From a bacterium (GTDB taxonomy: Bacteria > Patescibacteriota > Minisyncoccia > Phycocordibacterales > UBA2100): a DNA stretch of 64,000 nucleotides. A program made the translations under genes and the position numbers. The stretch lies in assembly GCA_030648265.1 (NCBI GenBank), contig JAUSHX010000013.1, positions 3,030 to 67,029 of the forward strand, given 5' to 3'. Under the pieces are notes generated by a model. It was not told the DNA's origin, made no database searches, and saw only the letters and a program-made list of their open reading frames with translations. Each line of letters starts with the position of its first letter. Position 1 is the stretch's first letter. This document shows, one piece after another, positions 7,615-49,657 of the stretch.

Positions 7615-8586
7615 ATGCAAGCAACAAAATACATTTGGTTCAACGGAAAGCTGGTTCCCTGGGCGAGCGCGAAAATTCACGTGCTTTCGCACTCTCTCCA
7701 CTACGGTACCGGCGCCTTTGAGGGCATCCGCATGTACGAGACCGAGAAGGGCTCGTCTACAGATGCCGACCATCAACCGGTCGGCCCTGCCATCTTCCAC
7801 CTGAAGCGACACATGGAGCGTCTTATATTCTCGGCGAAAAGCCTCGGGATGAAATTGCCATACACGCTGGACGAGCTCATGCAGGCGGTCGTGGAAACGG
7901 TGCGCAAAAACAAACTCAAGTCGTGCTATATCCGCCCGATTGCTTTCTTCGGTTTCGGCGAAGTGCGCGTGCTTCCCACCAACTGCCCCGTAGAGGTGGT
8001 AATCGCCGCGTGGCCGTGGGGCGCATATTTGGGCGACGAGCCCGCCCGCATCACCGTGGTAAAAACATTGCGCATCCATCCGCAGACTCTTAGAGTGAAT
8101 GCGAAAGTCTCCGGTCACTACGTGAATTCAATGCTCGCCGGCCGCGAGGCCACCGACCGCGGATTTACCGAGGCACTTCAATTGGACTATGAGGGCAACA
8201 TCGCCGAAGGGCCGGGAGAAAATTTCTTTATCGTCAAAGGCAAAACCATTTCCACGCCGAAGCTCGGTTCAATCTTGCCGGGCATTACGCGCGAATCCGT
8301 TATGACGCTCGCGCGCGACCTCGGCTACAAAGTGGTGGAGCGCACATTGACCATCAAAGATGCGCTTTCCGCCGATGAATGCTTCTTCACCGGCACCGCA
8401 GCGGAAGTGACGGCCATCGCCTCCATAGACAACAAGAAAATGAAGAAAGCGAATGGCTCGTCTACAGATGCCGATGCCTACTCCATCGGCCCAGTGACCA
8501 AACAAATCCGCGAAGAGTTCCTGAAAATCACCAGAGGAGAAAATCCGAGGTACAAAAAGTGGCTGACGTTCGTGAACGGATACTAG
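7615..8586 (+). CDS. ilvE: Branched-chain amino acid aminotransferase
   Basis: WFNGKLVPW...HSLHYGTGAFEGIRMYE and ECFFTGTAAEV. It carries two in-frame GSSTDAD mini-repeat insertions. Confidence 0.9.
   Translation: MQATKYIWFNGKLVPWASAKIHVLSHSLHYGTGAFEGIRMYETEKGSSTDADHQPVGPAIFHLKRHMERLIFSAKSLGMKLPYTLDELMQAVVETVRKNKLKSCYIRPIAFFGFGEVRVLPTNCPVEVVIAAWPWGAYLGDEPARITVVKTLRIHPQTLRVNAKVSGHYVNSMLAGREATDRGFTEALQLDYEGNIAEGPGENFFIVKGKTISTPKLGSILPGITRESVMTLARDLGYKVVERTLTIKDALSADECFFTGTAAEVTAIASIDNKKMKKANGSSTDADAYSIGPVTKQIREEFLKITRGENPRYKKWLTFVNGY
7749..7787 (+). repeat. In-frame intragenic mini-repeat (GGCTCGTCTACAGATGCCGAC-CATCAACC-GGTCGGCCC, encodes GSSTDADHQPVGP), copy 1 of 3
   Basis: Same 21-nt core as 8465-8503 and 16031-16067 with an internal 6-7 bp inverted repeat (GCCGACC/GGTCGGC). 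It is inserted between EKG and PAIF of ilvE relative to canonical IlvE. Confidence 0.7.
8465..8503 (+). repeat. In-frame intragenic mini-repeat copy 2 (encodes GSSTDADAYSIGP)
   Basis: GGCTCGTCTACAGATGCCGAT-GCCTACTCC-ATCGGCCCA. The stem is changed in a compensatory way (GCCGAT/ATCGGC). Confidence 0.65.
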
Positions 8587-9262: not shown

Positions 9263-10324
9263 TCACCTCCCCACCAGAGGCATTGGATGTTCAAGGTACG
9301 TGTAGACGGTGATGAGGGCAAGAAGCAGACTTATGCAGAGCGGCCCGAGAAAGATTCCGACCGGCCCGAAAAACACAATCCCGCCCAAGACGGACAGAAG
9401 CACGAGCAAGGGATGCATCCGCATGCCGCTGCCCACCAGTTTGGGCGCGAGGAAGTTGTCTATGAGCCCGACAGCGAGCGCCCCCCACACCAAGAGCCCG
9501 ATTGCCGGGACAATGCTTCCGGTAACAAACAGATAAATAATTCCGGGTATGAGCACGAGCGCCGTTCCAATCCCCGGTATGAGCGCCGCAACAACGGTAA
9601 CCGTTCCCCAGAGAATGCTGTTGGGGACGCCGAAAATAGCGAAGCCGATTGCCGTCAGCACTCCCTGCAGGCCCGCTATCATCAGACTTCCCTTCATCAC
9701 AGAATTAACAGCGAGCTCAAGCCGGTCAAACACAACTCTGTCATCTTTGTCGTTAAGCGGGCTTAGCGTTATCAGCGACTGTATTAATCTCGGCCCGTCC
9801 CGCAAGAGATAATAAAGAGAGATAAAGAAAATAAATAAGTTCAGCAAAAGCACGGAGATGCCCGATAGCGCCGCGCCCAAGTGGCCCGAAAGCCACACGA
9901 GTCCCTGCTTCACATACACATCAAGATTACTTGAAAGATGCGTGAAAAAATCACCGGTCCCCGGCACAATATTCTCGGATGTGTTCCCGATGCTTTGTAT
10001 CGCGTTAACGACAAGGTTCTGCGTGTTATCTCCCTGCGCAAGAGAGGCGTAGAGCTGCGTGGATTCGCGGAATATCTGCGTGCCCAACAATGCGAGCGGA
10101 ATGAGAATGCACACAAAACTGAACAGCAGGGTCGCACCGGCCGCCAATGCTTTCCTGTTGCCGGAGTTGCGAAGCAGGGTGCGGTACAGAGGCTGGAGCA
10201 CAACGGCACACACCGCCGCGAGAACAAGCGGGGTGAGAAACGGACTGATGATGAAAAACGACAAAACCAGCGCTCCCGCAAGAACTACCAAAAGAAACTG
10301 CAATTGTAACTTTGCGCTAGCCAT
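9263..10324 (-). CDS. AI-2E family (PerM/YhhT, UPF0118) transporter
   Basis: Eight predicted TM helices; typical AI-2E C-terminal region (GIGTALVLIPGIIYLF..., PLLVLLSVLGG). Confidence 0.75.
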   Translation of the reverse strand: MASAKLQLQFLLVVLAGALVLSFFIISPFLTPLVLAAVCAVVLQPLYRTLLRNSGNRKALAAGATLLFSFVCILIPLALLGTQIFRESTQLYASLAQGDNTQNLVVNAIQSIGNTSENIVPGTGDFFTHLSSNLDVYVKQGLVWLSGHLGAALSGISVLLLNLFIFFISLYYLLRDGPRLIQSLITLSPLNDKDDRVVFDRLELAVNSVMKGSLMIAGLQGVLTAIGFAIFGVPNSILWGTVTVVAALIPGIGTALVLIPGIIYLFVTGSIVPAIGLLVWGALAVGLIDNFLAPKLVGSGMRMHPLLVLLSVLGGIVFFGPVGIFLGPLCISLLLALITVYTYLEHPMPLVGR

Positions 10325-10378: not shown

Positions 10379-11560
10379 TCAACGCCATTCTTTTCCGCTG
10401 TCCCAAATCACTTTCACTATTGAGCCAAGCGCCAGCAGTACGAGTACAAACTTCGCGATGCCGCCGATAAGAGGGATGAATCCGAGCAAGGAGAATATGA
10501 GCACGCCGGAGAGTACCGTCTTCCACGTGAGTTGATAGTCCGCCGGCTTGTAAAATTGCTTGTGTACGAGCGAGCCGACAAGGACGGAAGCCCAAGCCGA
10601 GGCGGTAAGCAAGAGCGCCCCAAACAGGAGGAGACCCAACAGGCCGAACGGGATGCCGACGAGCGTTATGAGAGCAATGACTGATGCTATCGGAAGAACA
10701 ATCAGCACGATGAGCCCGCGGCCAATCTCCAGCATCGGATGTGCCGTGGCATTGCTAATGAGCGCGAGCGTGCAGCGTTTGAACGACAATCCCAGCACAA
10801 GCGCGAACAGAAGCGCCGCCAGAAATTTACCGAAGAGAAATGCGGATAGAATCGCCAGAATTCCTGCCGGCGAAACCGGGCTTTTCTTGGAGCCTCCCTG
10901 CTCCGTGTAAGTCGTCTTCCCTTTTACCACTGCACCCTCTTCCATGACGGCTTTCGCCGCCGCTTTGTAATCCAAGTTGCCGTCTATGACGGCGTCTTTG
11001 CCGAGCGTCAATTTGTTACCCTTAAACGTCACGTTTCCCTTCACGTGCGAATTGATAGTGGCCGAACTTCCTGCGAGCTTCATGTTGCCGCCGACAGAGC
11101 CGTCGGCATTAAGCGAACCGCCCGCCCATACGACATCACCGCCGACCGCGCCTGAAATTTGCGTCTGCCCCGCGGCAACGACAACATCGTTGCCGACTTT
11201 ACCGGCGAGAGTAATATTGCCGCCGCCGATGCGCACGTCATCCCCGGCATCAGAGAACACCGATATAGTGCCGCCGCCGATGAGGATATCCTGCGAAACC
11301 GGACCGTTGACGACAATGGTGCCGCCGCCGAGAATCAAATCGCCCTTGACCGTGCCGCCGCTTGAAATAGTGCCGCCGAAGAGATACAGGTCGTTTTGTA
11401 CCGTTTCTGTCGCGGAAAATGTCGGCGTTTCGCCGGTGCGAACCTCCGCACCAAGGGCAACTACCGGAATAATAAGCGCACTTATGACAAAGGCCGCCCA
11501 CGAAACCCTAAGAGTGTTATTCATATACGCCCATTGTACCCTCCGTTTCCCCTCTTTCAA
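10379..11560 (-). CDS. Membrane protein with N-terminal signal, a bactofilin/DUF4097-like beta-helical repeat domain and a C-terminal multi-TM region
   Basis: Repeats of the form GD.ILGGGTIVVNG / DILIGGGTISV / GDVVWAGGSL, followed by hydrophobic helices. Confidence 0.55.
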   Translation of the reverse strand: MKEGKRRVQWAYMNNTLRVSWAAFVISALIIPVVALGAEVRTGETPTFSATETVQNDLYLFGGTISSGGTVKGDLILGGGTIVVNGPVSQDILIGGGTISVFSDAGDDVRIGGGNITLAGKVGNDVVVAAGQTQISGAVGGDVVWAGGSLNADGSVGGNMKLAGSSATINSHVKGNVTFKGNKLTLGKDAVIDGNLDYKAAAKAVMEEGAVVKGKTTYTEQGGSKKSPVSPAGILAILSAFLFGKFLAALLFALVLGLSFKRCTLALISNATAHPMLEIGRGLIVLIVLPIASVIALITLVGIPFGLLGLLLFGALLLTASAWASVLVGSLVHKQFYKPADYQLTWKTVLSGVLIFSLLGFIPLIGGIAKFVLVLLALGSIVKVIWDSGKEWR

Positions 11561-11568
11561 CCCCGTTT

Positions 11569-11604
11569 CTCTATTCCAGTGTTTTGCAAAACACTGGAAT
11601 AGAG
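11569..11604. repeat. Family-3 perfect palindrome CTCTATTCCAGTGTTTTGCAAAACACTGGAATAGAG
   Basis: 36-bp palindrome just upstream of the 10379-11560 gene start. Confidence 0.7.
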
Positions 11605-12137: not shown

Positions 12138-12404
12138 TTAGTACGAATACGTAATCTCCTTTATTTGCGGAAGGCTCTTTTTTATTTTCTCTTCCATCTC
12201 AACGCCGAAGTGAACGCCCGCCATGCCACATCCTTGGCAATTTCCGATAAGGCGCAAAATGACCGAGTCCGATTCCACGGCAACAAGCTCCGCCCCGCCC
12301 CCGTGCTCCGTGAACATGGGCTCAAATTCTTTCAAAACGGCCTCCACCGCCGCGATGATTTGTTTGGTGGTTTTTTTCGCCGATTTTGTAGTCTTTTTGG
12401 CCAT
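12138..12404 (-). CDS. NifU-family Fe-S cluster assembly protein (Nfu-type C-terminal domain)
   Basis: GGGAELVAVESDSVILRLIGNCQGCGMAGVHFGVEMEEKIKKSLPQIKEI. Confidence 0.8.
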   Translation of the reverse strand: MAKKTTKSAKKTTKQIIAAVEAVLKEFEPMFTEHGGGAELVAVESDSVILRLIGNCQGCGMAGVHFGVEMEEKIKKSLPQIKEITYSY

Positions 12405-12429: not shown

Positions 12430-14121
12430 CTAGATTTTCTTCTTACCTTCCATTGAGACACCCTGGGAAGCTACTCGTTTTGCATTCAGTTTGGATTCAC
12501 TGCCAATCTTGCGTAGCGCAACGGCTGCATTATTAGAAATAGATTTCATTTGTTCTGAGGCATCTCCAACAGAACCAAATATTAAAGCTCCCTTAATAAT
12601 ACGATGCATATGAACGCCACGTGCTTCCTTAAAAAGCCCGTAAAAATCATTTGAGGTCAACTTTGCTAGCATTTCAACATCTTCGGGATTCCAACCACGA
12701 TTCATGGCAATGCTTTCTAGCACTTGACCGGGGTCTCTGTCGTCAACAAAAGATTCGAGTTTTTCTTTAAAAGCTTTCGTCACGTCTGGGTCTTTCACCA
12801 TGTTACCAAACGCTGAGCGTTTTAGATCGTAGAGGTCTCTCTCTTCAGGACGTTTCTCAATATAGTGTTTTAGGAGCTGACGAGCTTGTTTAGTGCGACC
12901 AAATTCTTTCAGAAAAGAGACTGTGCCATCTAGGTTTGTAGGAGTAATAACGTCAACATTTTCCACAGCAGCATTATAAATACCATCTAGGACTTCTTTT
13001 TCACCAACACTAAAAGAATCGTGATATAGATCCCAGGCTTTACTAAATGAGCCATCTTTTTTATCACGCTTAAGTTTTTCACTTAGCTTAGCCGCCACTT
13101 TGTTTAGAGCATCAACATCAAAATATCCAAGACGAATCCCGTCTAGCACAACAAGATCAAATTCATCTGTCTGAAAAAACTGGTACGCACTTAGTAATGT
13201 TTGCCATAACTTCTCCTGTTTTGTGATTTTATCTCCACCCCTTTCCAAGTCAAAAATTGGACTGAAATTCTTAATAAAATCTAAAGACGGGGCAACCTTC
13301 GGCTCGTAAACGACCCACCCAAACAGCGTAGTGGAATGTAGAGCTTGATATAAAAGGTCGGGATACGTTTCTGAGAGTAATTCTTCCAACCTTCGAGCTA
13401 TTCGCTCTATCTTTTTGATAACTCTAATGTTGACGATGCCTAGAGATGTGCAGTTCTTGTGCAACAGACCATAAATGCCTTCTCGTGACGAAAAAACAAT
13501 GTCTGCCGCTTCCAGGGGAGATGGTTTAAATTCTAATACAGTATCAGTGACTTTCTCGAGTTGTTTCTTAAAGACCTCCTTATCTTCGGCAGAAAGCTCT
13601 TCGTCATTAAGCAGTAGAGCCACCTTGCACCCACGTTGTTCTTTGAGGAGAGAGATCATGCCTAACACATCAGTAGCTTTTAGATCCCCTCCGGCACGCT
13701 CAAGATCGTCAATACAAACTATTTGATTTCTAACGAGGAAAAATAAGGCTCGTTCCGAACCTGCAAGATAGGGTTGAAAGTTGGGGAACCTACTTAGAAA
13801 AACAACTCCCTTTCTATAATTTTTCTTTATCCAACGAAGTCCAGATTGCAGTGAGTTAATGTCCGGACCTCTGTCTATCTGCTCAACTTCAATAGTGTTT
13901 TCGAAGAGAGAAAATCTCAAGTCATCTAAACTCTTCTGCCCAAATAACGAGATGTACGAGTACCTACTTAGCCCGATCTCTTTGGTACTTAATGCCTCTT
14001 TTAGATAATGACCCCATGCGTAAGTTTTCCCCACTCCCCACTTACCTTTAATACATAGAACTTCAGGTTCTTTGCTGGCAAGAAAACGCTTTATTTCTTC
14101 GTGTACCAACTTGATTGACAT
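12430..14121 (-). CDS. KAP-family P-loop NTPase (563 aa), AT-rich and probably horizontally acquired
   Basis: Walker A region GKWGVGKTYAW and the KAP-type Walker B IVCIDDLERAG. GC content is clearly lower than the neighbouring genes. Confidence 0.55.
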   Translation of the reverse strand: MSIKLVHEEIKRFLASKEPEVLCIKGKWGVGKTYAWGHYLKEALSTKEIGLSRYSYISLFGQKSLDDLRFSLFENTIEVEQIDRGPDINSLQSGLRWIKKNYRKGVVFLSRFPNFQPYLAGSERALFFLVRNQIVCIDDLERAGGDLKATDVLGMISLLKEQRGCKVALLLNDEELSAEDKEVFKKQLEKVTDTVLEFKPSPLEAADIVFSSREGIYGLLHKNCTSLGIVNIRVIKKIERIARRLEELLSETYPDLLYQALHSTTLFGWVVYEPKVAPSLDFIKNFSPIFDLERGGDKITKQEKLWQTLLSAYQFFQTDEFDLVVLDGIRLGYFDVDALNKVAAKLSEKLKRDKKDGSFSKAWDLYHDSFSVGEKEVLDGIYNAAVENVDVITPTNLDGTVSFLKEFGRTKQARQLLKHYIEKRPEERDLYDLKRSAFGNMVKDPDVTKAFKEKLESFVDDRDPGQVLESIAMNRGWNPEDVEMLAKLTSNDFYGLFKEARGVHMHRIIKGALIFGSVGDASEQMKSISNNAAVALRKIGSESKLNAKRVASQGVSMEGKKKI

Positions 14122-14187
14122 ATCTCATATTCTACCTTTTTATCCCGAACCGGAGAAACTTCATTTTCGGACCCCGAAACTATTCAG

Positions 14188-14239
14188 CAAACATCTTCTG
14201 AAGCGCATAGAGAGATGAGCATGCACGGCAATCTAGCCG
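14188..14239 (-). pseudogene. Displaced paralogous copy of the sufU 3' end (encodes ARLPCMLISLCASEDVC*)
   Basis: About 85% identical to 15978-16031, which encodes the real SufU C-terminus ARLPCMLISLYALQKMFSEGR*. Confidence 0.6.
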
Positions 14240-14254
14240 AACTGACGGAGTAGG

Positions 14255-15868
14255 TTACTGGTTGAGAGCCGCGCGGGTCGCAGGGCCGACATAGCCGGCC
14301 GCGTTAATGCCTTTGGCAGTTTGGAACTTTTTGACTGCCGTCTCTGTTACCGTCCCGAAGTAACCGGTCGCAGAGCCCGAGAAAAATCCGAGCGTGGCGA
14401 GGCGTTTCTGCAATTCCAGAACATCCGTCCCGCTATCGCGAAGACCGATGAAATTCTTGAAGACGTACGCATCGCCCGCTGTTGTAGCGGCGCCTTCACT
14501 CACGTTCGCCGTTCCGGACGAACTGGATGCTAGAGCATTGAGCGCCGCGCGGGTCGCGGGACCGACGGTGCCGACCGGCGACAACCCGTGCGCCGCTTGG
14601 AATTTCTTGACGGCGGCGGTCGTGGCCGGTCCGAAGTGACCGTTCGGAGTGGCCGCTAGGAATCCTTGCGTTGCGAGCACGGTTTGCAACTGCAAGACGA
14701 CATCACCCGTTTGTCCTTGACGCAGATTCCCGCTGAAGACGTAGCCGGAAGAAGGCGTGGAATTCGCGCTGGTGGATAGACCTGCGATTTGTGCCTGAAG
14801 TTTTGCAAGCTGGTCCATGAGCGCGGAAGATGCCGTACTACTCGCAGTGCCCGATGTGGAACTGGCGACACTCGTGGAACTTGCGGAAGTAGCGGAAGTA
14901 GATGCAGGGACTATCGGCGGCGGGACCACTCCGCCGGGGCCGAGAACGACGATGGTCTGCGTCGTAGACGCAGATTGTCCCCATGCGCCCACGGTTCCGA
15001 TTATCCGGAGGACATGGGTTCCGAAATCGCCCGCAAGCGGCGTCCACGAGAAGAGTCCCGACGCGTTAATGTTGTTGTTCGTTATGGATGACGCCGTACC
15101 CGTGAATGCATCGCCGATGGAAAAGGTCGTGGGCCAATAACCCTGAGCGCCCGCCCTAAAGGTAACGGTCTGACCGGGCGTGATGTTTCCCGCGGGAGCA
15201 AGGAGTTGGATTGTGAGCGACGGCTCCGCGCCCACGCGCACTGTTTGACTGGCTGAAACGCTGCGGCCCACAGAATCAGTGGCGTAGACCGTGAGCACGT
15301 GTTCTCCTTGCTGGGTCACATCAGGAGTCCACGAGAAGTTCCCCGATGCATCAATGTTGGTATTGAGGATGCTTGAGCCGCTGGTTCCGCCGAACGCATC
15401 GTGGAGAGAAAAAGACGGGTTGGTGAGTCGCGATACGGTCGCCGTAAACGAGAGTTTTGCGCCAATCATGACGGTTGGTCCGGGGGAAAGCGATTGGATT
15501 ACAAGCGAGGGCGGCGGTGCGACGACGATACTCACCGTCGTGCTCGCCGCATTACCGACGTTATCAGAGGCAGTGACTATGAGCGGGTGTGTGCCGATGT
15601 CGCTTTGTACCGGAGTCCAAGAGAACGCGCCGTTTCCACTGATGTTGCTGTTGGACGCGGTTGATGTGCCGAAGGGATCGGACAATATGTACAGGCTGGG
15701 TGAGAAACCAGTGGGCGTGATGGTGAATGAGACAGTGGTACCGACGGGTATCGCACCCAGAGGAGAGAGCGACTGAATGGAAACGGACAATGCATCTGCG
15801 AATGCAAAAGGTACTGCGAGGAGCATGAGCCCGGACACCGCCGCAACAAGACGCTTTACGGCCCTCAT
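14255..15868 (-). CDS. Secreted protein with repeated Ig-like/beta-sandwich modules and two C-terminal peptidoglycan-binding (PG_binding_1-like) domains
   Basis: Signal peptide. Repeated segments SLVIQSLSP...FSWTP, and two GQTGDVVLQLQ..GHFGPAT..AV..FQ motifs. Confidence 0.65.
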   Translation of the reverse strand: MRAVKRLVAAVSGLMLLAVPFAFADALSVSIQSLSPLGAIPVGTTVSFTITPTGFSPSLYILSDPFGTSTASNSNISGNGAFSWTPVQSDIGTHPLIVTASDNVGNAASTTVSIVVAPPPSLVIQSLSPGPTVMIGAKLSFTATVSRLTNPSFSLHDAFGGTSGSSILNTNIDASGNFSWTPDVTQQGEHVLTVYATDSVGRSVSASQTVRVGAEPSLTIQLLAPAGNITPGQTVTFRAGAQGYWPTTFSIGDAFTGTASSITNNNINASGLFSWTPLAGDFGTHVLRIIGTVGAWGQSASTTQTIVVLGPGGVVPPPIVPASTSATSASSTSVASSTSGTASSTASSALMDQLAKLQAQIAGLSTSANSTPSSGYVFSGNLRQGQTGDVVLQLQTVLATQGFLAATPNGHFGPATTAAVKKFQAAHGLSPVGTVGPATRAALNALASSSSGTANVSEGAATTAGDAYVFKNFIGLRDSGTDVLELQKRLATLGFFSGSATGYFGTVTETAVKKFQTAKGINAAGYVGPATRAALNQ

Positions 15869-15963
15869 ATGGTTTTAATTATACGTCAGAGGTGAAAACG
15901 CGCCAGCCTAATGCACAACCCCGTACCGTAGGGTCCGAAGATTTGAATTAACACTCTGCCTTA

Positions 15964-16374
15964 TTACCGGCCCTCGGAAAACATTTTCTGGAGAGCGTAG
16001 AGTGAGATGAGCATGCACGGCAATCTAGCCGGGCCGACCGGTCCATGGTCGGCATCTGTAGACGAGCCTATCTCTGCACTTATCAATTTTTGAATCTGCT
16101 TCGGGCCGATTGCTTTCAATTTTTTCACGGTTTTGCCGAGCATCCATTCCGTAAACATTGAACTGGAGGCGATGGACAGGGCGCATCCGGAACCGCTGAA
16201 GCGCACTTGTTCAACAATGCCCTTTTTATTTACCTTCAACTGCAAAAGGATTTTGTCGCCACACAACGGATTTTTTGCTTCCACTTTATATGTCGGGCGC
16301 TTCATCACACCAAAATTCTGCGGATTCCGGTAGTGCTCCATTATTTCCTCGCGGTATATGTCATTATTGTCCAT
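15964..16374 (-). CDS. sufU: SufU/IscU-like Fe-S scaffold protein (ORF in the track extends upstream; likely start at MDNNDIY)
   Basis: NPLCGDKILLQLKV...FSGSGCALSIASSSMFTE. It carries one in-frame GSSTDADHGPVG mini-repeat near its C-terminus. Confidence 0.8.
   Translation of the reverse strand: MDNNDIYREEIMEHYRNPQNFGVMKRPTYKVEAKNPLCGDKILLQLKVNKKGIVEQVRFSGSGCALSIASSSMFTEWMLGKTVKKLKAIGPKQIQKLISAEIGSSTDADHGPVGPARLPCMLISLYALQKMFSEGR
16031..16067 (-). repeat. In-frame intragenic mini-repeat copy 3 (encodes GSSTDADHGPVGP in sufU)
   Basis: The reverse complement reads GGCTCGTCTACAGATGCCGACCATGGACCGGTCGGCCC. Confidence 0.7.
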
Positions 16375-16485: not shown

Positions 16486-17709
16486 TCATGATTGGAATTT
16501 CTTCTGTATCGCATTGAGCGCTACAACTAAGCGGTCAATTTCTGCGGGAGTATTGTATACGCAAAGACTTACTCGTACCGAAGCATCCAACGAAAAACTC
16601 TCGTGCAAAATCTGCGCGCAGTGGTGGCCGGCGCGGACGGCGATGCCTTCCCTATCAAGCAGAGTCGCGATGTCGTGCGGGTGAATGCCAGCAATCGTAA
16701 AGCTGAATATCGGCGCTCTCGCATCGGCGGTTGCGGGGCCAAGGAGCGTGAGACCGGAAACATTTTTGAGCGCGCGGAGCGCGTAGGCAGTCAGACTGCT
16801 TTCATTTTTCGCAATAGTTTTTAATCCGATTTTTTGCAGAAATGAGATTGCTGCACCCAAGCCAATCACCTCGGCAACGGGGGCTGTACCAGCTTCAAAT
16901 TTCTTCGGCAGAGGCGCGTAGGTTGTCTTTGTGCGTGTAACTTGTTCTATCATGTGACCACCAAATACTTGAGGCGGCAACTTCTCCAACAATTCTTTTT
17001 TGCCGTAGAGAACGCCGATTCCTGTCGGACCGTACATTTTATGGCCGGAGAAGGCCATGAAATCACAGTTCAGATTCTGCACATCAACGTCAAGGTGCGC
17101 GACACTTTGCGCCGCATCAACCAGCACTAATGCACCAACCGCGTGAGCAAGAGCAACCATCTCCCGAACCGGATTCTCCGTGCCAAGCACGTTTGAGACA
17201 TGGGTAATGCCGACGAACTTCGGTTTGTGCTTCGCCAATAATTTCTTGTACACACTAAGATTGATTCTTCCCTCTGCAGTGAGCGGAACAAAATCAATTT
17301 TTATTTTCTTCCGGAGAGCCGCGGCCTGCCATGGAACTATCATCGCATGGTGCTCCATGTCGGAAAGCAGAATGCGGTCTCCGCGATGCAAAAAAGCATT
17401 GGCCACTCCGGAAACGACCATGTTGATGCTCGCCGTTGCCCCTGAAGTAAAAATAATCTCCTTGCGATGTTCGGCGTTAATAAAATCTTTCACGTGGCCG
17501 CGGACGCCTTCGTACTTTGCAGTGGCAGCTTCCGCAAGCGCATAGACCCCGCGGTGAACCGGCGCGTTTTTGGAGCGGTAGAACGCATCCATTCGCTCAA
17601 GAACAACGTCGGGCTTTTGCGTGGTCGCGGCGTTATCAAAATACGCCAAAGGTTTAACTCCCCGTTTTCGGAATATCGGAAATTCTTTCTTTATAGTTTC
17701 CAGCATCAT
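16486..17709 (-). CDS. sufS: Cysteine desulfurase SufS
   Basis: YFDNAATTQKP, SGHKMYGPTGIGVLYGK, and a C-terminal RAGHHC loop. Confidence 0.9.
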   Translation of the reverse strand: MMLETIKKEFPIFRKRGVKPLAYFDNAATTQKPDVVLERMDAFYRSKNAPVHRGVYALAEAATAKYEGVRGHVKDFINAEHRKEIIFTSGATASINMVVSGVANAFLHRGDRILLSDMEHHAMIVPWQAAALRKKIKIDFVPLTAEGRINLSVYKKLLAKHKPKFVGITHVSNVLGTENPVREMVALAHAVGALVLVDAAQSVAHLDVDVQNLNCDFMAFSGHKMYGPTGIGVLYGKKELLEKLPPQVFGGHMIEQVTRTKTTYAPLPKKFEAGTAPVAEVIGLGAAISFLQKIGLKTIAKNESSLTAYALRALKNVSGLTLLGPATADARAPIFSFTIAGIHPHDIATLLDREGIAVRAGHHCAQILHESFSLDASVRVSLCVYNTPAEIDRLVVALNAIQKKFQS

Positions 17710-18272
17710 ATTCTTTCCAGTTCGGCATTTATGATTTCCGCTTCCTCTGCGGGAAACTCGCTAATGAGGGCGCCGAGAAACCCGCGCACGATGAGCTTTT
17801 TTGCATCACCCCGCGCAAGGCCGCGCGAGGCAAGGTAGAACAGCTGGTCTTCGTCAATTTTGCCAACCGTGGCACCGTGCCCGGCTTTCACTTCGTTTTC
17901 CAAAACCTCCAGCCGCGGGATAGCTCGCGCCCGCGCGTAGGGAGAAAGAAGAATGACGCGTTCGCTCAAATCAGTATCGGAATTCTTCGCCCCTTTTTCA
18001 ATAACGACCAGTCCCTCATAGTTGGCGCTCGCATCGCCGTCAAGCACGCCGCGCGCCAGCGTTCGCGAGAATGTGTCTTTCGCCTTATGAATGACCTCCG
18101 TTTCCAGATGAAACGCGTTGTGTTTGGCGTAAAACACGCACAAGACCTTCACCGACGAACCCGGCTTATCCAGTATCACGCGCACGAGCAGAGACCGGTT
18201 CTCTTCCCCGAACCAGAGTATGGGAACGATTTTCATTTCCCCGGCGTTTACTCGTACCTCAATGGTTGTCAT
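17706..18272 (-). CDS. sufD: SufD-like Fe-S assembly protein (short, SufB/D C-terminal core only)
   Basis: SufBD beta-helix C-terminal motifs (AGHGATVGKIDEDQLFYLASRGL). Confidence 0.7.
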   Translation of the reverse strand: MTTIEVRVNAGEMKIVPILWFGEENRSLLVRVILDKPGSSVKVLCVFYAKHNAFHLETEVIHKAKDTFSRTLARGVLDGDASANYEGLVVIEKGAKNSDTDLSERVILLSPYARARAIPRLEVLENEVKAGHGATVGKIDEDQLFYLASRGLARGDAKKLIVRGFLGALISEFPAEEAEIINAELERI

Positions 18273-18388
18273 ATTTGTGTACCAATCAACGAATGTATTC
18301 CAATCTACAAATAACTACAAATGTTAAGCCCCGTATATTCGTAACCATTCGTAGTATTCGTATCATTTGTAGATTGGGACATACTTAT
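18273..18388 (-). repeat. Family-2 intercistronic repeat, copy 2
   Basis: CCAATCAACGAATGTATTCCAATCTACAAATAACTACAAATG...TATTCGTAACCATTCGTAGTATTCGTATCATTTGTAGATTGGGAC between sufB and sufD. Confidence 0.75.
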
Positions 18389-19792
18389 TTATCCGAGGGA
18401 ACCTTCCATTTCCAGCTGGATAAGACGATTTAATTCAACGGCATATTCCAACGGGAGCGTTTTTATGACCGGTTCAATGAATCCCTGCACCACCAGATTG
18501 ACCGCTTCCTGCTCGGAGAGCCCGCGGCTCTGGAGGTAAAAGACCTGGTCTGCGGAAATCCGTCCGACTTTCGCCTCGTGTCCGATAGTAACGTCAGATT
18601 CGTTAACAACGATGTTCGGCACCGTATTGGATACCGAAATGTTGTCGGGCATGAGGGCATCGCACTGCACGTGCGAGGCCGCGCCCCGGGCACCTTTCAG
18701 AATTTTGAGCAGACCGCGGTACGTGGAAATCCCTCCGCCGAAACTGATGCTCTTGGAAACGATGGTGGAAGTGGTATTCGGCGCGCAGTGGATGACCTTG
18801 GCACCTGTATCCTTATGCTGGCCGGGCCCTGCGACGGCGATGTTCAAATGTTCGGCGCGCGCGCCACGGCCCTTCAGAATTGAGCACGGATAGAGCATCG
18901 TGGTCTTGCTGCCCAAGCTCCCGCCCACCCATTCCTGAATGCCGTCCTCTTCCACGATTGAGCGCTTCGTATTCAGGTTGTACACATCCTTGCTCCAGTT
19001 CTGGATGGTCGTGTACCGGCATCGCGCTCCTTTTTTCACGAAAATTTCCACCACTGCGGCGTGGAGCGAAGCGGTGTTGTATATCGGCGCGGTGCACCCC
19101 TCTATGTAGTGCACGGAGGCACCCTCATCAACGATGATGAGCGTGTGCTCAAATTGGCCGGAGCCCCTGGCATTCATGCGGAAATAGGTTTGGAGCGGCA
19201 TATCCACCTTCACCCCTTTCGGTACATACAAAAAGCTCCCGCCCGACCACACCGCCCCGTGGAGGGCGGAAAGTTTGTGTTCTTCGGCTTTGACGCACTC
19301 CGTCATAAAATACTTCTTCACCAGTTCCGGATATTTCTGAACCGCCGTGTCAGTATCGCAAAAGATAACGCCCTTATCTTCCCACTTGGAGCGCAGGTTC
19401 TGATAAAAACCTTCCGACTCGTACTGCCCGATGACGCCCGCGAGAAATTCGCGCTCCGCTTGCGGGACGCCGATTTTTTCAAACGTATTTTTTATATCTG
19501 CGGGCACGTCGTTCCACGATTGGTATTTTGCGGGCTCCGTCTTTTGGTAGTAGCGCATTGCTTGGAAATCCAGTTTGCTCAAATCGGGTCCCCATGTGGG
19601 CAGGGGAATTTTCAGGAATTGTTCGTACGACTTCAGGCGAAATTCCCGCATCCACGCAGGCTCGTTCTTTGACTCCGAGATTTGCTCAATAATTTCCCGC
19701 GACAATCCCCTTTCGGTGCGAAAGAGATACCTATCCGTGAGAGCGGCAGAAATTCCCTGGTCCTTTTCTATCACTGATGTGTGCTTTCTCAT
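18389..19792 (-). CDS. sufB: Fe-S cluster assembly protein SufB
   Basis: Full-length SufB motifs, including the C-terminal GHEAKVGRISADQVFYLQSRGL. Confidence 0.9.
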   Translation of the reverse strand: MRKHTSVIEKDQGISAALTDRYLFRTERGLSREIIEQISESKNEPAWMREFRLKSYEQFLKIPLPTWGPDLSKLDFQAMRYYQKTEPAKYQSWNDVPADIKNTFEKIGVPQAEREFLAGVIGQYESEGFYQNLRSKWEDKGVIFCDTDTAVQKYPELVKKYFMTECVKAEEHKLSALHGAVWSGGSFLYVPKGVKVDMPLQTYFRMNARGSGQFEHTLIIVDEGASVHYIEGCTAPIYNTASLHAAVVEIFVKKGARCRYTTIQNWSKDVYNLNTKRSIVEEDGIQEWVGGSLGSKTTMLYPCSILKGRGARAEHLNIAVAGPGQHKDTGAKVIHCAPNTTSTIVSKSISFGGGISTYRGLLKILKGARGAASHVQCDALMPDNISVSNTVPNIVVNESDVTIGHEAKVGRISADQVFYLQSRGLSEQEAVNLVVQGFIEPVIKTLPLEYAVELNRLIQLEMEGSLG

Positions 19793-19793: not shown

Positions 19794-20606
19794 TTATTTG
19801 ATGTAGTCCCCGTAACCCTTCTTTTCTATGGCAGTCGCGAGCGTACTGGTTCCTGATTTTATGATTTTTCCTTTGTGCATTATGTGGACGCGGTCGGGCT
19901 TAATCCAGCGCAAAATGCGATTGTAGTGCGTGATGATTAGGAGAGTTACTCCGCGCGCGCGGAGTCGGGATATTTGTTTGGCAACAAGTTTGAGCGCGTC
20001 AATATCAAGTCCTGAATCAATTTCATCAATGACGATAAGTTGTGCGGGCAGGAGCGAAAGCTGGAGAATTTCCATTTTCTTTTTTTCTCCTCCGGAAAAC
20101 CCTTCGTTCAGAGAGCACGAGAGAAAATCTTTGGAAATCTTCAAAGTGTTTGCAGTGTCTTTAATTTCCTCCCTGAAATCCGCCATTTTGAAATCCTTGC
20201 CCTTCCCCTTGAAATTGCGGACAGCGGCTGTCAGAAGATTCGTTACTGAAACTCCGGAAACTGTTTGCGGATTCTGGAACGCGAGCAAAACTCCCGCGCG
20301 CGCAATTTCGTCGGTCTTCATCTTGGAAAGCATGTGCTTGCCGAATGTTATTGAGCCGCGGGAAATCTTGTACTGCGGATTCGCGAGCAGTGTGTTTCCG
20401 AGCGTTGACTTGCCGGAGCCGTTCGGCCCCATCAAGACGCAGGTCTGCCCCCTCCGCACGACAAGGTTGATGCCGTTCAAAATAGGATTCCCTGCCCCGC
20501 CGTGCCCCGTAGCCGCTTGCGTGGTACTGGGGTAGCCAGCGCGAAGCCCTGTGGTACTGGGGTTTTCAAGCCGTACATGGAGATTTTTTATAGTGAGGGT
20601 GGACAT
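19794..20606 (-). CDS. sufC: Fe-S cluster assembly ATPase SufC with an in-frame N-terminal insertion of about 25 aa
   Basis: GPNGSGKSTL, LSGGEKKKMEILQL, DEIDSGLDIDAL. The insertion PSTTGLRAGYPSTTQAATGHGGAGN is encoded by tandem CCCCAGTACCAC units at about 20480-20570. Confidence 0.9.
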   Translation of the reverse strand: MSTLTIKNLHVRLENPSTTGLRAGYPSTTQAATGHGGAGNPILNGINLVVRRGQTCVLMGPNGSGKSTLGNTLLANPQYKISRGSITFGKHMLSKMKTDEIARAGVLLAFQNPQTVSGVSVTNLLTAAVRNFKGKGKDFKMADFREEIKDTANTLKISKDFLSCSLNEGFSGGEKKKMEILQLSLLPAQLIVIDEIDSGLDIDALKLVAKQISRLRARGVTLLIITHYNRILRWIKPDRVHIMHKGKIIKSGTSTLATAIEKKGYGDYIK

Positions 20607-23374: not shown

Positions 23375-23752
23375 CTATTTTATAAGGGCCACACAGGAAA
23401 TTTCAATGAGCGCGTTCTTCGGCAATGCTGATACGCCAACTGTGGCGCGAGCTGGTTTGTGCTCGCCAAATGTTTCTGCATACACCTCATTCATGTCTTT
23501 AAAATCATTTATATCGCGCAGGTAGATGTTCACGCTCGCGACCGAATCAAAACCAACTCCCGCGGCTTGAAGAACTTCCTCAAGATTCTTAAATATCTGC
23601 TCGGTCTGCTCTTTGATTCCGCCTTTTACAAACTCCCCCGTTGCGGGGTCAGTAGGAATCTGACCCGAGCAAAAAACCAGATTTCCTGCCACAACCGCCT
23701 GCGAATACGGCCCTATTGCTTTTGGTGCCTTATCTGTGTGAATTGGCTTCAT
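23375..23752 (-). CDS. ridA: RidA/YjgF-family enamine/imine deaminase
   Basis: PKAIGPYSQAV...PARATVGVSALP..ALIEISCVA. Confidence 0.85.
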   Translation of the reverse strand: MKPIHTDKAPKAIGPYSQAVVAGNLVFCSGQIPTDPATGEFVKGGIKEQTEQIFKNLEEVLQAAGVGFDSVASVNIYLRDINDFKDMNEVYAETFGEHKPARATVGVSALPKNALIEISCVALIK

Positions 23753-23912
23753 GTTAGAGATTCTTAGCGAATGATAATGAGATTAGAAGCTCTTACACCC
23801 AGCACCTTTGTTTCATTGAGAAACGAAGGTGCTGGGTCAAGAATATGTAATTCGCTCTGCTCATAACATCTTCTAGACATTACTACAGAGGTTATGCGTT
23901 GACAATGTTTTA
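23753..23912 (-). repeat. Family-1 element, copy 2
   Basis: CATGTTAGAGATTCTTAGCGAATGATAATGAGATTAGAAGCTCTTAC-ACCCAGCACCTTTGTTTCATTGAGAAACGAAGGTGCTGGGT-CAAGAATATGTAATTCGCTCTGCTCATAAC. Fills the trpF-ridA spacer. Confidence 0.85.
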
Positions 23913-27364: not shown

Positions 27365-28107
27365 AAGAGATCTCGGACGGCAAATTGAAGAGTAACACGC
27401 GGAATCAAGTCGCTCGACAATTACGACATCTCCGCTCCGTAGAAGCGATCGGTGATGCAAAAGACTCCTATGAAATGAATCGTAGCGGTTCTGAGTATAT
27501 CTCCAACTTTAATGGAGTTAAGACGTTGTTCGAGTATACAAAAAAGTTACAGAGCCAGGTTATCCTTGACCTGGGCGCTGGGACGGCTAGGGCCATACGC
27601 GAAATATCAGAGAGTAATTTGGGGAGCGGGCTCGTATTCAGTGCTACGGTCTTAAGACACAGCCCAGAAATCACTAAGTATCTTGGTATAAGCAAGGTGC
27701 ATATTTCTCCTGTGGAAACTTTAAGGGGTGTGGCGGATTCTTCTATCGGATGCGTTTTGGCAAACCTTTCTATTGCTTACAGTGTTTCACCCAATCTCGC
27801 TGTCAAAAGCATTGACAGAGTTTTAGTTCCTGGCGGAGCTTTAAAGGCCGTCTTTCCTTCGCTGACTCAGAGTATTAAACGCGCAGGTGTGCTTCAAGAC
27901 TCTAGGATATTCAAGCTTGAGCTGGAGTCTATCGGATACGATACATACGAGAATCGCGGACCTCAATTAACCGTTCTCCTAGCAGTTAAACCCGGCAAAG
28001 CGATTGAAGGAGCTGCTCAGAACTTGTATTTTGCTGATGAGCTGACGGTATTCGATCAGCTAACGGACTTCGTACGGGATAGAACTACAAACCGCGCTGG
28101 AGGTTAA
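27361..28107 (+). CDS. Class I SAM-dependent methyltransferase-like protein
   Basis: Motif [11 protein letters not shown] and the post-I VLVPGGAL region. Confidence 0.5.
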
Positions 28108-28247
28108 CCGTTCTGCGCACGGTTGCGCAAAAAGTGATCCATAATGACGAGTGAGGACATCGCATCTACTATCGGGACGGCGCGCGGGAGGACGCATGGG
28201 TCGTGGCGGCCCGAGGCTTCGAGTTTTGCTACACCCGCCTTCTTCAT
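28105..28247 (-). pseudogene. Displaced paralogous copy of the aroC 3' end (intact 47-codon frame [47 protein letters not shown])
   Basis: About 85% nucleotide identity to the aroC 3' end at 28775-28930, which encodes ...[40 protein letters not shown]. Confidence 0.65.
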
Positions 28248-28290
28248 TGGAACCATTCGCGCGAATTAGACAATGCAGAAATGCTCGTTT

Positions 28291-28327
28291 TCTTATTCCA
28301 GTCTTTTGCAAAACACTGGAATAGACA
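28291..28327. repeat. Family-3 palindrome (CCAGTCTTTTGCAAAACACTGG)
   Basis: Third copy of the TTTTGCAAAA-centred palindrome. Confidence 0.6.
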
Positions 28328-28361
28328 TGACGTCAGATATTTCTCTCGTTACTGTCTATTT

Positions 28362-28397
28362 CCTTATATGCTTATTCGCGCGAATAAGCATATAAGG
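28362..28397. promoter_or_regulatory. Perfect 36-bp palindrome CCTTATATGCTTATTCGCGCGAATAAGCATATAAGG (downstream flank of hicB-like gene)
   Basis: Identical copy at 28726-28761 on the other side of the gene. Contains TATAAG. Confidence 0.8.
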
Positions 28398-28405
28398 AAT
28401 AATGC

Positions 28406-28678
28406 TCATGTGAGAACCGGCATTTTACTAGCGCGAGCAGTGAAGCGAAGATTCCCTTCCTTAACGGCCTCCGAAATAATGCGAGCTTCAATTGCTCCTT
28501 CAATACACTCGACAATCATTTCTTTCGCGTGCGATAAATTCTTGCCCCACGAGACGGTTCCCTGCACTTTTGGCGCAGTTGCAACATATCCGCCCATATC
28601 AACTTCCGGCTCAAAAACAGCCTTAAATGAGCCGTATTTCGTTTTTACAATAGCTGTTTTTATAGAGCTCTTTTTCAT
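28406..28678 (-). CDS. HicB-like (UPF0150/DUF1902 RNase-H-fold) antitoxin-family protein; no HicA partner present
   Basis: YGSFKAVFEPEVDMGGYVATAPKVQGTVSWGKNLSHAKEMIVECIEGAIE. TATAGT lies 9 nt upstream of the ATG. Confidence 0.55.
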   Translation of the reverse strand: MKKSSIKTAIVKTKYGSFKAVFEPEVDMGGYVATAPKVQGTVSWGKNLSHAKEMIVECIEGAIEARIISEAVKEGNLRFTARASKMPVLT

Positions 28679-28725
28679 GCTTGTAACTATACAATGCCAT
28701 GTTGGATTTCGCCACTACGTTTATT

Positions 28726-28761
28726 CCTTATATGCTTATTCGCGCGAATAAGCATATAAGG
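28726..28761. promoter_or_regulatory. Perfect 36-bp palindrome, second copy (upstream flank of hicB-like gene)
   Basis: Identical to 28362-28397. Confidence 0.8.
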
Positions 28762-28773
28762 AGTTATAACATT

Positions 28774-29859
28774 TCACGAGTTTTGCGCCTTGTTGCGCAG
28801 ATAGTGATCCATGATGACCAGCGCGGACATCGCGTCCACTATCGGAATCGCTCGCGGAAGGACGCACGGGTCGTGGCGGCCGGAGGCTTCTAGCTTGGTT
28901 GCCTCGCCTCCTTTTTTCACCGTGTCTTGCTCTTTCTTGATGGTTGAAACCGGCTTGAATACAACGCGGAAGTGAATTGTTTCCCCGCTTGAAATCCCGC
29001 CAATCGTACCGCCCGCGTTGTTCGTCTTTGTGTGTATTGTGCCATCCTTATCGGTGTAGAACGGGTCATTGTGTTCGCTCCCGCGCATGCCGACGCTCCG
29101 GAAGCCGAGCCCAATATCAAATCCCTTGACCGCATTGATTGAAAGCATCGCTTTCCCAAGGTCTGCATTGAGTTTATCAAACACCGGCTCGCCCAAACCA
29201 ACCGGGACATTCCGTATGACGCCTCTCACGACCCCGCCCACAGAATCGCCCTCAGATTTCACCTTTTCAACAAGCGCAATCATTTTTTCTGCCGATTTCT
29301 GGTCTGGGCAGCGGATGATATTTGATTCCACATCTTTCGCCGTGACCGTATTAAAATCCACGTCCGCGTGTATATCGCCGACTTGGTCCACGTAGCTGAT
29401 GATTTCTATGCCCAGCTTCTCTTTAAGGTATTTCTGCGCAATCGCACCCGCGGCGACGCGCGCAAGCGTCTCTCGCGCGGAAGCGCGCCCGGACCCCCTC
29501 CAGTCGCGGGCACCGTACTTCGCCTCGTAGGTGAAATCGGCATGCGACGGGCGGTACAAATCTTTGAGAGCCAGATAATCTTCGGGTTTTGTGTCTTCAT
29601 TGAGCACCATCATGAGAACCGGCGTACCCGTGGTCTTTCCCTCAAAGTAGCCGGAAAGAATATGAATTTTGTCCGCCTCTTTTCGGGGAGTCGTTATTTT
29701 ACTTTGCCCCGGGCGCCGCCTATCAAGCGCCACTTGAATTTCCTCCTCCGTTATCTCAATCCCCGGAGGGCACCCATCAACTACAACACCAACAGCCCCG
29801 CCATGCGATTCGCCGAATGTCGTTATCCGAAAGAGTTGTCCGAATGAATTTCCCGCCAT
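28774..29859 (-). CDS. aroC: Chorismate synthase
   Basis: [34 protein letters not shown]. Confidence 0.9.
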
Positions 29860-30028
29860 GTTAGATTTTGTTAACGAATGTAATGAGTTTAGAAAATCTT
29901 ACACCCAGCACCTTTCATGCATATTCTACCACTTAATCTGCGAATACCAGCTGTTGTTTGTGATTTAAATATAGCATCTGCCTAACGTTAAAGGTGCTGG
30001 GTTATAGAAAATATAGTCGCTTTGCTCC
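29860..30028 (-). repeat. Family-1 element, copy 3 (78-nt loop)
   Basis: ...TCTTAC-ACCCAGCACC-[loop]-GGTGCTGGGT-TATAGAAAATATAGTCGCTTTGCTCCTTATTTTC. Confidence 0.85.
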
Positions 30029-34959: not shown

Positions 34960-35103
34960 GTTAGGGATTCTTAGCGAGCGATAGCGAGATTAGAAGCTCT
35001 TACACCCTGTTAAATGCGATTCTTCGAGTCGCCCCGCCCTTGGCGGGATTTAACAGGGTTAAGAATATGTAATTCGCTTCGCTCATAACATTTTCTAAAC
35101 AAA
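34960..35103 (-). repeat. Family-1 element, copy 4, with alternative stem ACCCTGTTAAAT/ATTTAACAGGGT
   Basis: Conserved arms (…GAGATTAGAAGCTCTTAC / TTAAGAATATGTAATTCGCTTCGCTCATAAC), but both halves of the stem are replaced by a different complementary pair. Immediately upstream of trpE. Confidence 0.85.
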
Positions 35104-36289: not shown

Positions 36290-36306
36290 TGAGCGGATCC
36301 CGTTAT

Positions 36307-40413: not shown

Positions 40414-40459
40414 GGTTGGATTATATACGAGAATCCGAGAAAAGGTGTCGTATGTATAT

Positions 40460-40495
40460 GGTACAATCCATCAACACCTGTTGATGGATTGTACC
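40460..40495. promoter_or_regulatory. Perfect 36-bp palindrome GGTACAATCCATCAACACCTGTTGATGGATTGTACC abutting the ATG of the PaaX-like paralog 1
   Basis: Identical copy at 41101-41136 immediately after the same gene. Contains TACAAT. Confidence 0.8.
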
Positions 40496-48353: not shown

Positions 48354-48395
48354 ATCAGATTTTGTTACGAGCGAAGCGAGTTAGAAAATCTTATA

Positions 48396-49529: not shown

Positions 49530-49657
49530 AATTTTATGCCTTATTTCCTAATTTCTTAATGCTACCCCCACCCTCCAGATACGCAAGCGGCAAAAGTGGA
49601 CATCAAAAGTCTCTCCGCCTGCTTTTTTTCTCTTCCCTTTCACCTTTCTGGGGATAA

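Follow-up and report, generated by a model that had tools for sequence, protein, structure and literature searches.

How does a housekeeping gene come to have a second copy of its own 3′ end, with another gene lying between the two? This question is raised by sufU in a stretch of 64,000 nucleotides from a Patescibacteriota bacterium (contig JAUSHX010000013.1), called the window in the following. The sufU gene closes a sufCBDSU cluster; downstream of it follow a gene for a protein with peptidoglycan-binding domains (PGB gene), a diverged copy of the sufU tail, a gene for a KAP-like P-loop NTPase and a gene for a NifU-like protein (Table 1). Comparison with related genomes suggests that the copy behind the PGB gene is the former 3′ end of sufU itself, now a pseudogene fragment; this is the best reading of the block, and a probable one. 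We consider it rather likely that this end was displaced by homology-anchored recombination in an ancestor of a clade of Kaiserbacteria-like Patescibacteria. The locus looks like a fossil of old recombination rather than a working mobile-element site.

The two copies of the sufU tail

An exact block of 27 nucleotides, CGGCTAGATTGCCGTGCATGCTCATCT, is present on the minus strand at 14213-14239 and again at 16005-16031. Over the codons for ARLPC...KMF the two copies agree at 45 of 49 compared bases. The copy behind the PGB gene (copy A, the relic) has lost two nucleotides just 3′ of the core and is thereby frameshifted. Corrected for this loss, its translation is ARLPCMLIS(L)YALQKMFAE, followed by a TAG stop codon of its own (14180-14182). 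It starts with the first base past the PGB stop codon (14254), leaving a gap of 0 nt. A preliminary description of this DNA had already recognised a diverged duplicate of the sufU tail, with the PGB gene between the copies and the KAP gene behind copy A, and this was confirmed. The limits given there (14188-14239) are too narrow, since copy A comprises 75 nt (14180-14254). The same description had named a generic repeat as the possibility that would speak against a duplicated tail. This was not seen: CGGCTAGATTGCCGTGCATGCTCATCT has no further match in the 64 kb even with three mismatches allowed, and no match was found in 100 shuffled sequences. A scan with the last 45 residues of each of the 63 gene ends of the window detected displaced copies for two of them, sufU and aroC.

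Genes were called by Pfam profile scans of the open reading frames (ORFs) of the window. The assignment of SufU is based on the NifU_N match and on its place after sufS, with SufC, SufB, SufD and SufS encoded upstream. As in every relative, the protein most likely begins with MDNNDIY..., which places the true sufU start at the ATG in position 16374.

Table 1. Features of the sufU locus and of the aroC locus used for comparison. Positions refer to the window.
Feature	Position	Strand	Remarks
sufC	19794-20606	minus	
sufB	18389-19792	minus	
sufD	17706-18272	minus	
sufS	16486-17709	minus	
sufU, working gene, last of the sufCBDSU cluster	15964-16374	minus	Pfam NifU_N E = 5e-28; IscU-like Fe-S scaffold
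30-nt hairpin-forming element in sufU	16036-16065	minus	encodes SSTDADHGPV, between Gly and Pro codons (GGC^CC)
Working sufU tail (copy B)	15964-16038	minus	exact core 16005-16031, stop TAA 15964-15966
Conserved upstream block of the PGB gene, CTGGCGCGTTTTCACCTCTGACGTATAATTAAA	15876-15907	minus	window compared with L003, L008, L024
PGB gene	14255-15868	minus	three Ig-like repeats and two PG_binding_1 domains; Pfam PG_binding_1 E = 3e-34
Copy A, putative relic of the former 3′ end of sufU, 75 nt	14180-14254	minus	from comparison with the working tail and relatives
Parts of copy A	14240-14254; 14213-14239		3′ half of the 30-nt element (CCTACTCC...); core; followed by deletion and TAG
Spacer between relic and KAP gene	14122-14179	minus	
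KAP-like P-loop NTPase gene, solitary	12430-14121	minus	Pfam KAP_NTPase E = 1.5e-4
NifU-like gene (C-terminal domain type)	12138-12404	minus	Pfam NifU E = 1e-13
aroC working tail	28774-28911	minus	ends RNKAQNS-stop
Segment inserted in aroC, 532 nt	28242-28773	minus	GC 41.0%
90-aa gene in the aroC segment	28406-28678		no Pfam match; between 44-nt perfect palindromes (28360-28403 and 28724-28767)
aroC relic, intact reading frame	28104-28241	minus	ends ...RNRAQNG-stop; 80% identical over 135 nt to the working tail

The sufU-NifU interval in related genomes

To place the duplication in context, the window genes were mapped onto 15 related Patescibacteria loci (designated by L numbers). These were reached by pattern scans and homologue look-ups; exact-sequence look-ups of SufU and PGB gave nothing. 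The nearest loci belong to Candidatus Kaiserbacteria and other Patescibacteria metagenome-assembled genomes (MAGs). SufU orthologues with 75-85% identity occupy the same position in 10 related loci, and none of the relatives examined has a second sufU copy. Three loci (L006, L007 and L010) represent the empty site: sufS-sufU is followed by the NifU-like gene at a distance of 20-90 nt, with a single tail. The comparison thus shows sufU directly followed by the NifU-like gene as the apparent ancestral layout. An unrelated 440-aa gene fills the slot in L002 and L009. The PGB gene is found there in the window and in L001, L003/L011, L008, L012, L013, L014 and L024; the sufU-PGB arrangement occurs in at least five lineages. 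Orthologues 67-78% identical are located downstream of sufU in L001, L003/L011, L012 and L013, and a partial one in L008. L014 and L024, being contig ends, lack a complete sufU; each has a PGB orthologue, that of L024 downstream of a partial sufU. Because empty sites exist and distant PGB homologues sit elsewhere, the PGB gene is regarded as an insertion into the sufU-NifU junction. The comparison shows that the insert starts inside sufU and ends 0 nt past the PGB stop codon. Synteny therefore bears out what had been proposed for the PGB segment, an insertion, and for the downstream copy, a displaced sufU end.

Between the PGB gene and the NifU-like gene the window carries the KAP gene, L001 a gene for 299 aa, L012 genes for 182 and 772 aa (together with a CrtO gene between sufU and PGB), L014 a NYN gene, L013 yet another gene and L003 nothing. 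Big_6/LTD genes and unknown genes also belong to the variable contents of the interval across lineages. Judged by gene content, this slot is hypervariable, and it could serve as a marker locus for gene flow in the clade. The 299-aa gene of L001 lies between two direct copies of AAAAAATATCG (10200-10230 and 11185-11200); the final bases of the sufU relic (..AATGTTTGCTGG) are preserved there solely on the downstream side of this gene.

The relic is present at the same junction, TAA|CCTAC..., in independent assemblies (L003/L011, L024 and L012) and in various stages of decay. The relics of L003 and L024 open with CCTAC(T/C)CC, an 8-mer that the window relic has too. Past the PGB stop codon the window reads CCTACTCCG (TAA|CCTACTCCG...). 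In L003/L011 the 15 nt past the stop codon are the same (CCTACTCCG...) and are followed by the tail fragment ARLPCRRISLYALQKMFSKKVGI with its stop. L024 has a degenerate relic of full length (CCTACCCG...LSLAALDKMFANGGK and stop), and L012 has only the distal half (...ALQKMLSGDGDK). Weaker traces are all that is seen in L014, L013 and L001; in these three and in L012 the relic is partly or wholly deleted. Since the same relic lies at the same junction in several relatives, the insertion would be old and shared rather than genome-specific. A recent integration, or one confined to this genome, does not agree with the relic common to L003/L011, L024 and L012 and its traces in L014, L013 and L001. 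In L003/L011 the relic runs straight into the upstream region of the NifU-like gene and the gene itself, and in L003 relic and upstream region are collinear with the working tail and NifU-like gene of the empty-site locus L010. By this comparison the relic has kept its collinearity with the DNA upstream of the NifU-like gene. The module of PGB gene and relic is, on the evidence of these alignments, either old or was spread together with its relic, and the arrangement was probably exchanged laterally.

Directly upstream of the shared block, sufU contains a 30-nt hairpin-forming element. The preliminary description had taken its product, GSSTDAD, for a mini-repeat of sufU; it is instead one copy (16036-16065) of a dispersed element that is inserted in frame. 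Further copies are located at 7753-7782 and 8458-8487, in a class IV aminotransferase gene (7615-8586), and L001 has several sites, also within sufS. The layout is GGC|TCGTCTACAGATGCCGA..loop..TCGGC|CC; the element interrupts unrelated genes without a change of frame, always with a Gly codon before it and a Pro codon behind it, and adds SSTDADxxxx. The stems vary with compensation (GCCGACC/GGTCGGC and GCCGATG/CATCGGC). SufU lacks the element in L001, L002, L003, L008, L010 and L024, and in L003 the orthologues of the element-bearing genes are without inserts. Variants are present in sufU of L006, L007, L012 and L013, the L007 version being longer (19 residues). Palindromic elements of Rickettsia, reportedly about 100-150 nt long (Ogata et al., 2000), and other small palindromic elements are said to insert in frame into protein-coding genes. 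The element described here resembles them in being dispersed, hairpin-forming and located in the coding sequence of several unrelated genes with the frame kept; it differs in having only 30 nt, in its constant GGC^CC site and in the compensatory changes of its stem. We know of no transposase for it. This Gly-Pro element may merit a study of its own.

The relic also contains part of this element. In the window the 8-mer CCTAC(T/C)CC (CCTACTCC) starts 9 nt ahead of the Ala (GCN) codon of ARLPC, and it has the same register in the element loop of sufU in L012 and L013 (GAT GCC GAT GCC TAC TCC ATC GGC CC). The start of the relic matches the element at 13 of 21 bases, compared with 4-8 of 21 for genomes without the element. 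Because CCTACTCC stands in the same register, the recipient sufU must already have held the element, with the breakpoint inside its hairpin: the illegitimate joint TAA|CCTACTCC falls in the loop. This coincidence of a breakpoint with an in-frame hairpin element is the most unusual detail of the locus.

Which of the two ends is native can be read from the relatives. The L003 relic agrees with its own working tail at 34 of 51 bases, the longest identical run being 8 nt, and with the working tails of the window and of L013 at 44-45 of 51. The working SufU proteins of L003 and L024 are without the 10-residue insert and have a tail of the type ...LLSHV(A/V)LQK... (SHV type). The relics of both genomes encode ...SLYALQKMF or ...SLAALDKMF, as in the empty-site loci L006 and L007, and carry the 3′ half of the element. 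This suggests that the relic is the recipient's own end and that the working end arrived together with the PGB gene. The exact 27-nt core is peculiar to the window. Because the two copies of the window are so similar, while the L003 relic matches the tails of other genomes better than its own, we infer that relic and working tail were partly homogenised by gene conversion here.

Synonymous sites give information on the age of the module. The PGB gene has a GC content of 58.9%, the highest of all 1.7-kb segments of the window. The CTGGCGCGTTTTCACCTCTGACGTATAATTAAA block forms the left edge of the sequence common to all PGB modules, and the stretch from the sufU stop codon to this block is different in each genome. 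At 4-fold sites PGB identity is 0.55-0.76 overall and 0.67-0.71 for the window compared with L001 or L003; for SufC, SufB, SufD, SufS and SufU the same pairs give 0.28-0.57. Between the window and L008 the N-terminal part of PGB reaches 0.90, and SufS and SufU about 0.61. The identity expected by chance, 0.27-0.33, is equal for PGB and the suf genes. Codon bias was considered as the cause of the high PGB values; it is unlikely to be so alone, since the chance expectation is the same and the PGB value for L003 and L012 (0.58) is not raised. SufD divides the genomes into two groups, a division that SufS does not follow. From these patterns the PGB module seems to be younger than its flanks, and homologous recombination among the lineages is evidently frequent.

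The KAP gene was suggested earlier to belong to the same inserted unit, which the data do not support. It is the opposite extreme in composition: with 40.8% GC it is the lowest of all 1.7-kb segments, so that the proposed analysis of composition did find both genes to be extreme, PGB (58.9%) at one end and KAP at the other. The gene is located between the relic and the start codon of the NifU-like gene and is not found in the slot of any relative. The Pfam KAP_NTPase match (21.5 bits, cutoff 20) covers only the N-terminal 60 residues; residues 24-207 match the PADLOC candidate defence family PDC-S49 (E = 2e-17, a profile match only). The nearest homologue is 60% identical, and homologues are named from Proteobacteria and Patescibacteria. 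The closest one with a readable contig (57% identical) lies in an unrelated context. The last part of the spacer between relic and KAP gene, AAAAAGGTAGAATATGAGAT, resembles the sequence before the NifU-like start in L003 and before a different cargo gene in L013, as far as a short similarity can suggest. As read from these comparisons, the KAP gene is a later, independent and lineage-specific insertion downstream of the relic. Arrival of KAP together with the relic, from a donor with KAP behind sufU, was rejected, because the relic occurs without KAP in L003, L011, L012 and L024 and the homologues are located elsewhere.

Origin of the displaced end

The aroC gene was named in the preliminary description as a second case of the same pattern, and its anatomy is indeed the same, with a working tail (28774-28911) and a relic (28104-28241) separated by an inserted segment. 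A partial third copy of the palindrome centre, ATTCGCGCGAAT (about 28258-28269), abuts the aroC relic, and the relic stop codon overlaps that of a convergent methyltransferase gene at 28104-28107. All six aroC relatives end in RNRAQNG-stop, like the relic; it is the working tail of the window that reads RNKAQNS-stop. Duplication and insert are found in none of the relatives L018-L023. Compared with L018, L020 and L023, aroC (28774-29859) is a mosaic: bases 1-330 and 660-960 are nearest to L018, with L020 as near as L018 at about 690-870, and bases 390-660 are nearest to L023 (up to 92% compared with 70%). This mosaic is indirect evidence that homologous recombination is frequent. A foreign working end combined with a native displaced end is thus seen in aroC as well as in sufU of L003 and L024, and in both cases the displaced end still adjoins the DNA that originally followed it (for sufU in L003 compared with L010). 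A mechanism shared by sufU and aroC, as suggested earlier, is therefore plausible; the evidence favours homology-anchored recombination of DNA from relatives over the site-specific integrase that had been envisaged.

The following course of events is proposed for sufU. The 30-nt hairpin element would first have inserted in frame into the recipient sufU. DNA from a related lineage, carrying a replacement sufU end and the PGB gene, would then have been taken up and joined on the left side by a homologous crossover within sufU and on the right side by an illegitimate joint. Because the right joint lies upstream of the end of homology, about 70 nt of the recipient would have been duplicated. The module of PGB gene and relic would later have passed between related lineages by ordinary homologous recombination. 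In the lineage of the window, gene conversion would have homogenised part of both tails, giving the exact 27-nt block, and the KAP gene would have been inserted later and independently.

Several points weigh against this reading. The mechanism is deduced from its end products only, and among the PGB homologues found no donor with a primary sufU-PGB adjacency was identified; homologues at 51-54% identity sit in unrelated neighbourhoods. Classical homology-facilitated illegitimate recombination usually deletes recipient DNA and does not duplicate it, and a Campbell-type single crossover with a circular fragment yields the same product as the one seen here; of these two routes the homologous crossover with an illegitimate joint is favoured. 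In the window itself working tail and relic are of the same type, so that native and incoming end cannot be told apart here directly. The relics of the window and of L003 agree at 41 of 49 bases (0.84), compared with 0.55-0.71 at 4-fold sites, and the relic is well kept while the sufU-PGB spacer is unalignable between genomes. This high conservation could mean that the relic is under constraint or is part of a mobile unit. The search for recombinases covered only the 64 kb of the window out of the whole genome.

Site-specific integration would explain the two copies as attL and attR of a small cassette (PGB, or PGB and KAP) whose recombinase is encoded elsewhere and which carries its own copy of the target gene end, like prophage e14 in icd. 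Direct repeats with an exact core do flank a single-gene segment, several lineages share the junction past the PGB stop codon, the PGB gene is patchily distributed with empty single-copy sites among the relatives, aroC provides a second case, and the anatomy is like that of e14 and icd (PMC6379469). The tyrosine or serine recombinase that had been predicted was looked for by Pfam scans: none of about 65 ORFs of the 64-kb window matched Phage_integrase, Resolvase, Recombinase or transposase families, and in the 6-10 kb flanks of relatives (L012-L014) there was none among the listed Pfam matches. The copies in L003 (34/51, runs of at most 8 nt) would not make a working attL/attR pair, as there is no identical core outside this genome; the relic is partly or wholly lost in L012, L013, L014 and L001, and that of the window is frameshifted. 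One recombinase could not serve both sufU and aroC, since their cores share no sequence. We therefore regard site-specific integration as quite unlikely. The relic should be annotated neither as a gene nor as an att site. The tail could also act as a portable homology arm: a circular tail-PGB fragment, formed by recombination of the two tail copies in one genome, would enter a second genome at its sufU tail through one RecA-dependent crossover. In such a natural insertion-duplication the relic travels with the cargo and no recombinase is needed. Such a cycle accounts for the relics of L003 and L024, which are unlike their own tails and like those of other genomes, for the lower synonymous divergence of PGB compared with the suf genes, for the precise-looking empty sites and for a relic that outlasts the neighbouring spacer. 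It would have to operate on diverged homology of just about 60-70 nt, a length near the lower limit for RecA-dependent crossover. A circle would be expected to carry along the spacer past the working tail, but this spacer is different in each genome; moreover, the origin of the first copy is left unexplained and the circular junction was not observed. This explanation is rather unlikely. A related and more speculative proposal, for which the chances are low, is that hairpin mini-elements in or next to genes (30 nt in sufU, 44 nt in aroC) are favoured breakpoints when these ultra-small bacteria acquire genes, and the displaced end is the portable homology arm of a recombinase-free cassette system. 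If true, a module of tail and cargo would excise and re-enter the same conserved gene in other lineages without a dedicated recombinase.

The direct orientation of the copies and the stop codon retained by the relic agree with an ancestral tandem duplication, either of the whole sufU or of its 3′ part, after which PGB was inserted and most of the second copy was lost; the relic would then be what remains of a paralogue. This explanation needs more events, finds no relative with two sufU copies, and explains neither the differing tail types in L003 and L024 nor the fact that in aroC the clade-typical ending is on the relic and not on the working tail; it is very unlikely. A regulatory role of the relic, as promoter or leader for the downstream gene or as a signal at the PGB end, would concern its persistence rather than its origin. 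In every relic (window, L003, L012, L014 and L024) preservation is best in the distal part ...GCTCTCCAGAAGATGTTT, which is also unusually constant at synonymous sites of the working tails, and the identity between relics (0.84) exceeds that at 4-fold sites. Gene conversion from the working tail, which is under constraint, can account for this conservation as well. Folding of the relic region is not better than that of shuffled sequences (z = +1.1), an Rfam search of the whole window gave zero matches, and no terminator-like or sigma-70-like site is located in or beside the relic, with the total for the region no more than expected by chance. In L001 and L013 the relic is deleted and the genes are intact. 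We consider a regulatory role unlikely. An assembly artefact would come to mind because the source is a MAG contig; the copies are diverged rather than identical and the same arrangement is present in independent assemblies from different samples (L003, L011, L012 and L024), so that an artefact is practically negligible.

Displacement of a 3′ end by homology-anchored recombination, the reading preferred here, has parallels in known systems. Orphaned 3′ ends in type VI secretion system (T6SS) and Rhs loci have been attributed to homology-facilitated illegitimate recombination (PMC5361080), and as cited there, Jackson et al. (2009) spoke of C-terminal displacement in Rhs, contact-dependent inhibition (CDI) and T6SS effector loci. 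As in these loci, homology to the conserved upstream portion of a gene would anchor the incoming DNA, which would supply a new 3′ end with downstream cargo; the old end is shifted downstream and left promoterless, no integrase is involved, and repeated events build variable arrays in one slot. The sufU locus differs in that the gene is a housekeeping gene, the new end is homologous to the old one and not a new toxin domain, the cargo encodes a surface protein and not an immunity protein, there is a single displaced end, and the mechanism is inferred. In E. coli, prophage e14 (and phage 21) integrates into the 3′ end of icd and leaves a 163-bp pseudo-icd′ (PMC6379469; e14/icd integration: Hill et al., 1989, as cited there). 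There too, a slightly different incoming end keeps the gene intact, the native end becomes a downstream pseudo-copy, and direct repeats flank the insert. The prophage, which has a size of 15 kb, possesses its own integrase and an identical crossover core, whereas the sufU insert is a single gene of 1.7 kb, a recombinase was not found in the ORFs of the window, relatives show no conservation of the core, and the clade has the arrangement in fixed form. For natural transformation, homology-facilitated illegitimate recombination is reported from Acinetobacter, S. pneumoniae and P. stutzeri in work referenced in PMC5361080 and PMC3240628. It likewise combines one homologous anchor with one illegitimate joint, in naturally competent bacteria. 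The experimental events usually delete DNA next to the anchor, whereas here about 70 nt (sufU) and about 140 nt (aroC) are duplicated. Competence and homologous-recombination genes have been reported in Patescibacteria generally (PMC12455944). The locus thus fits as a further example of the known 3′-end displacement pattern, in a housekeeping gene of a little-studied phylum. On this reading it would show how streamlined Patescibacteria gain genes without visible mobile-element machinery: an essential gene would receive DNA of relatives at its end and stay intact, and the old end is left as a datable scar.

Other repeats and possible acquired segments

Long imperfect palindromes (about 100-130 nt) are located at about 23750-23880, 29855-29925 and 34955-35100 and at about 20 sites in 46200-58480. 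This family has the form ...CTTACACCCAGCACC-loop-GGTGCTGGGT..., fills the intergenic spacers of the ribosomal-protein genes and borders the trp and aro blocks. With one end (CATGTTAG, plus strand) the palindromes reach right up to the start codon of the gene that follows, and the family has no Rfam match. An integron with these repeats (23.7-58.5 kb) as attC sites, which might also have accounted for the sufU insertion, was rejected: they lie between ribosomal-protein, trp and aro genes and share no sequence with the sufU core, and an integron integrase is not present in the window. A terminator-like palindrome, TTCCAGTGTTTTGCAAAAGACTGGAA, occurs at 28290-28330 and about 11560-11600; it is intergenic, is also present in L001 and L003, and gives the peptides FCKTLE and SVLQKT in spurious ORFs.

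A PaaX_M/Cas2-like domain is encoded by three paralogous genes, at 49659-50355, 40340-41074 and 58780-59346. The first of these (gene at 49699-50286) is situated within the ribosomal-protein operon but on the other strand, with a 45-nt direct repeat on either side (49659-49703 and 50311-50355, 96% identity). A 939-aa protein encoded at 35378-39126 has weak matches to TraG/VirD4-type coupling proteins and HerA-like ATPases; its gene adjoins a methyltransferase gene with 42% GC and may be another acquired block. A stretch of 12 residues near the C-terminus of ribosomal protein S2 (622-1473) recurs in the spacers 52770-52805 and 18347-18379 (100% and 91% at the protein level), which suggests a small dispersed element able to sit in coding sequence. 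Two collagen-like Gly-X-Y paralogues with a 9-nt periodicity are encoded at 60847-61488 and 63367-63876, and the flanks of these genes are also duplicated (61355-61417 and 63938-64000; 61948-62010 and 62723-62785).

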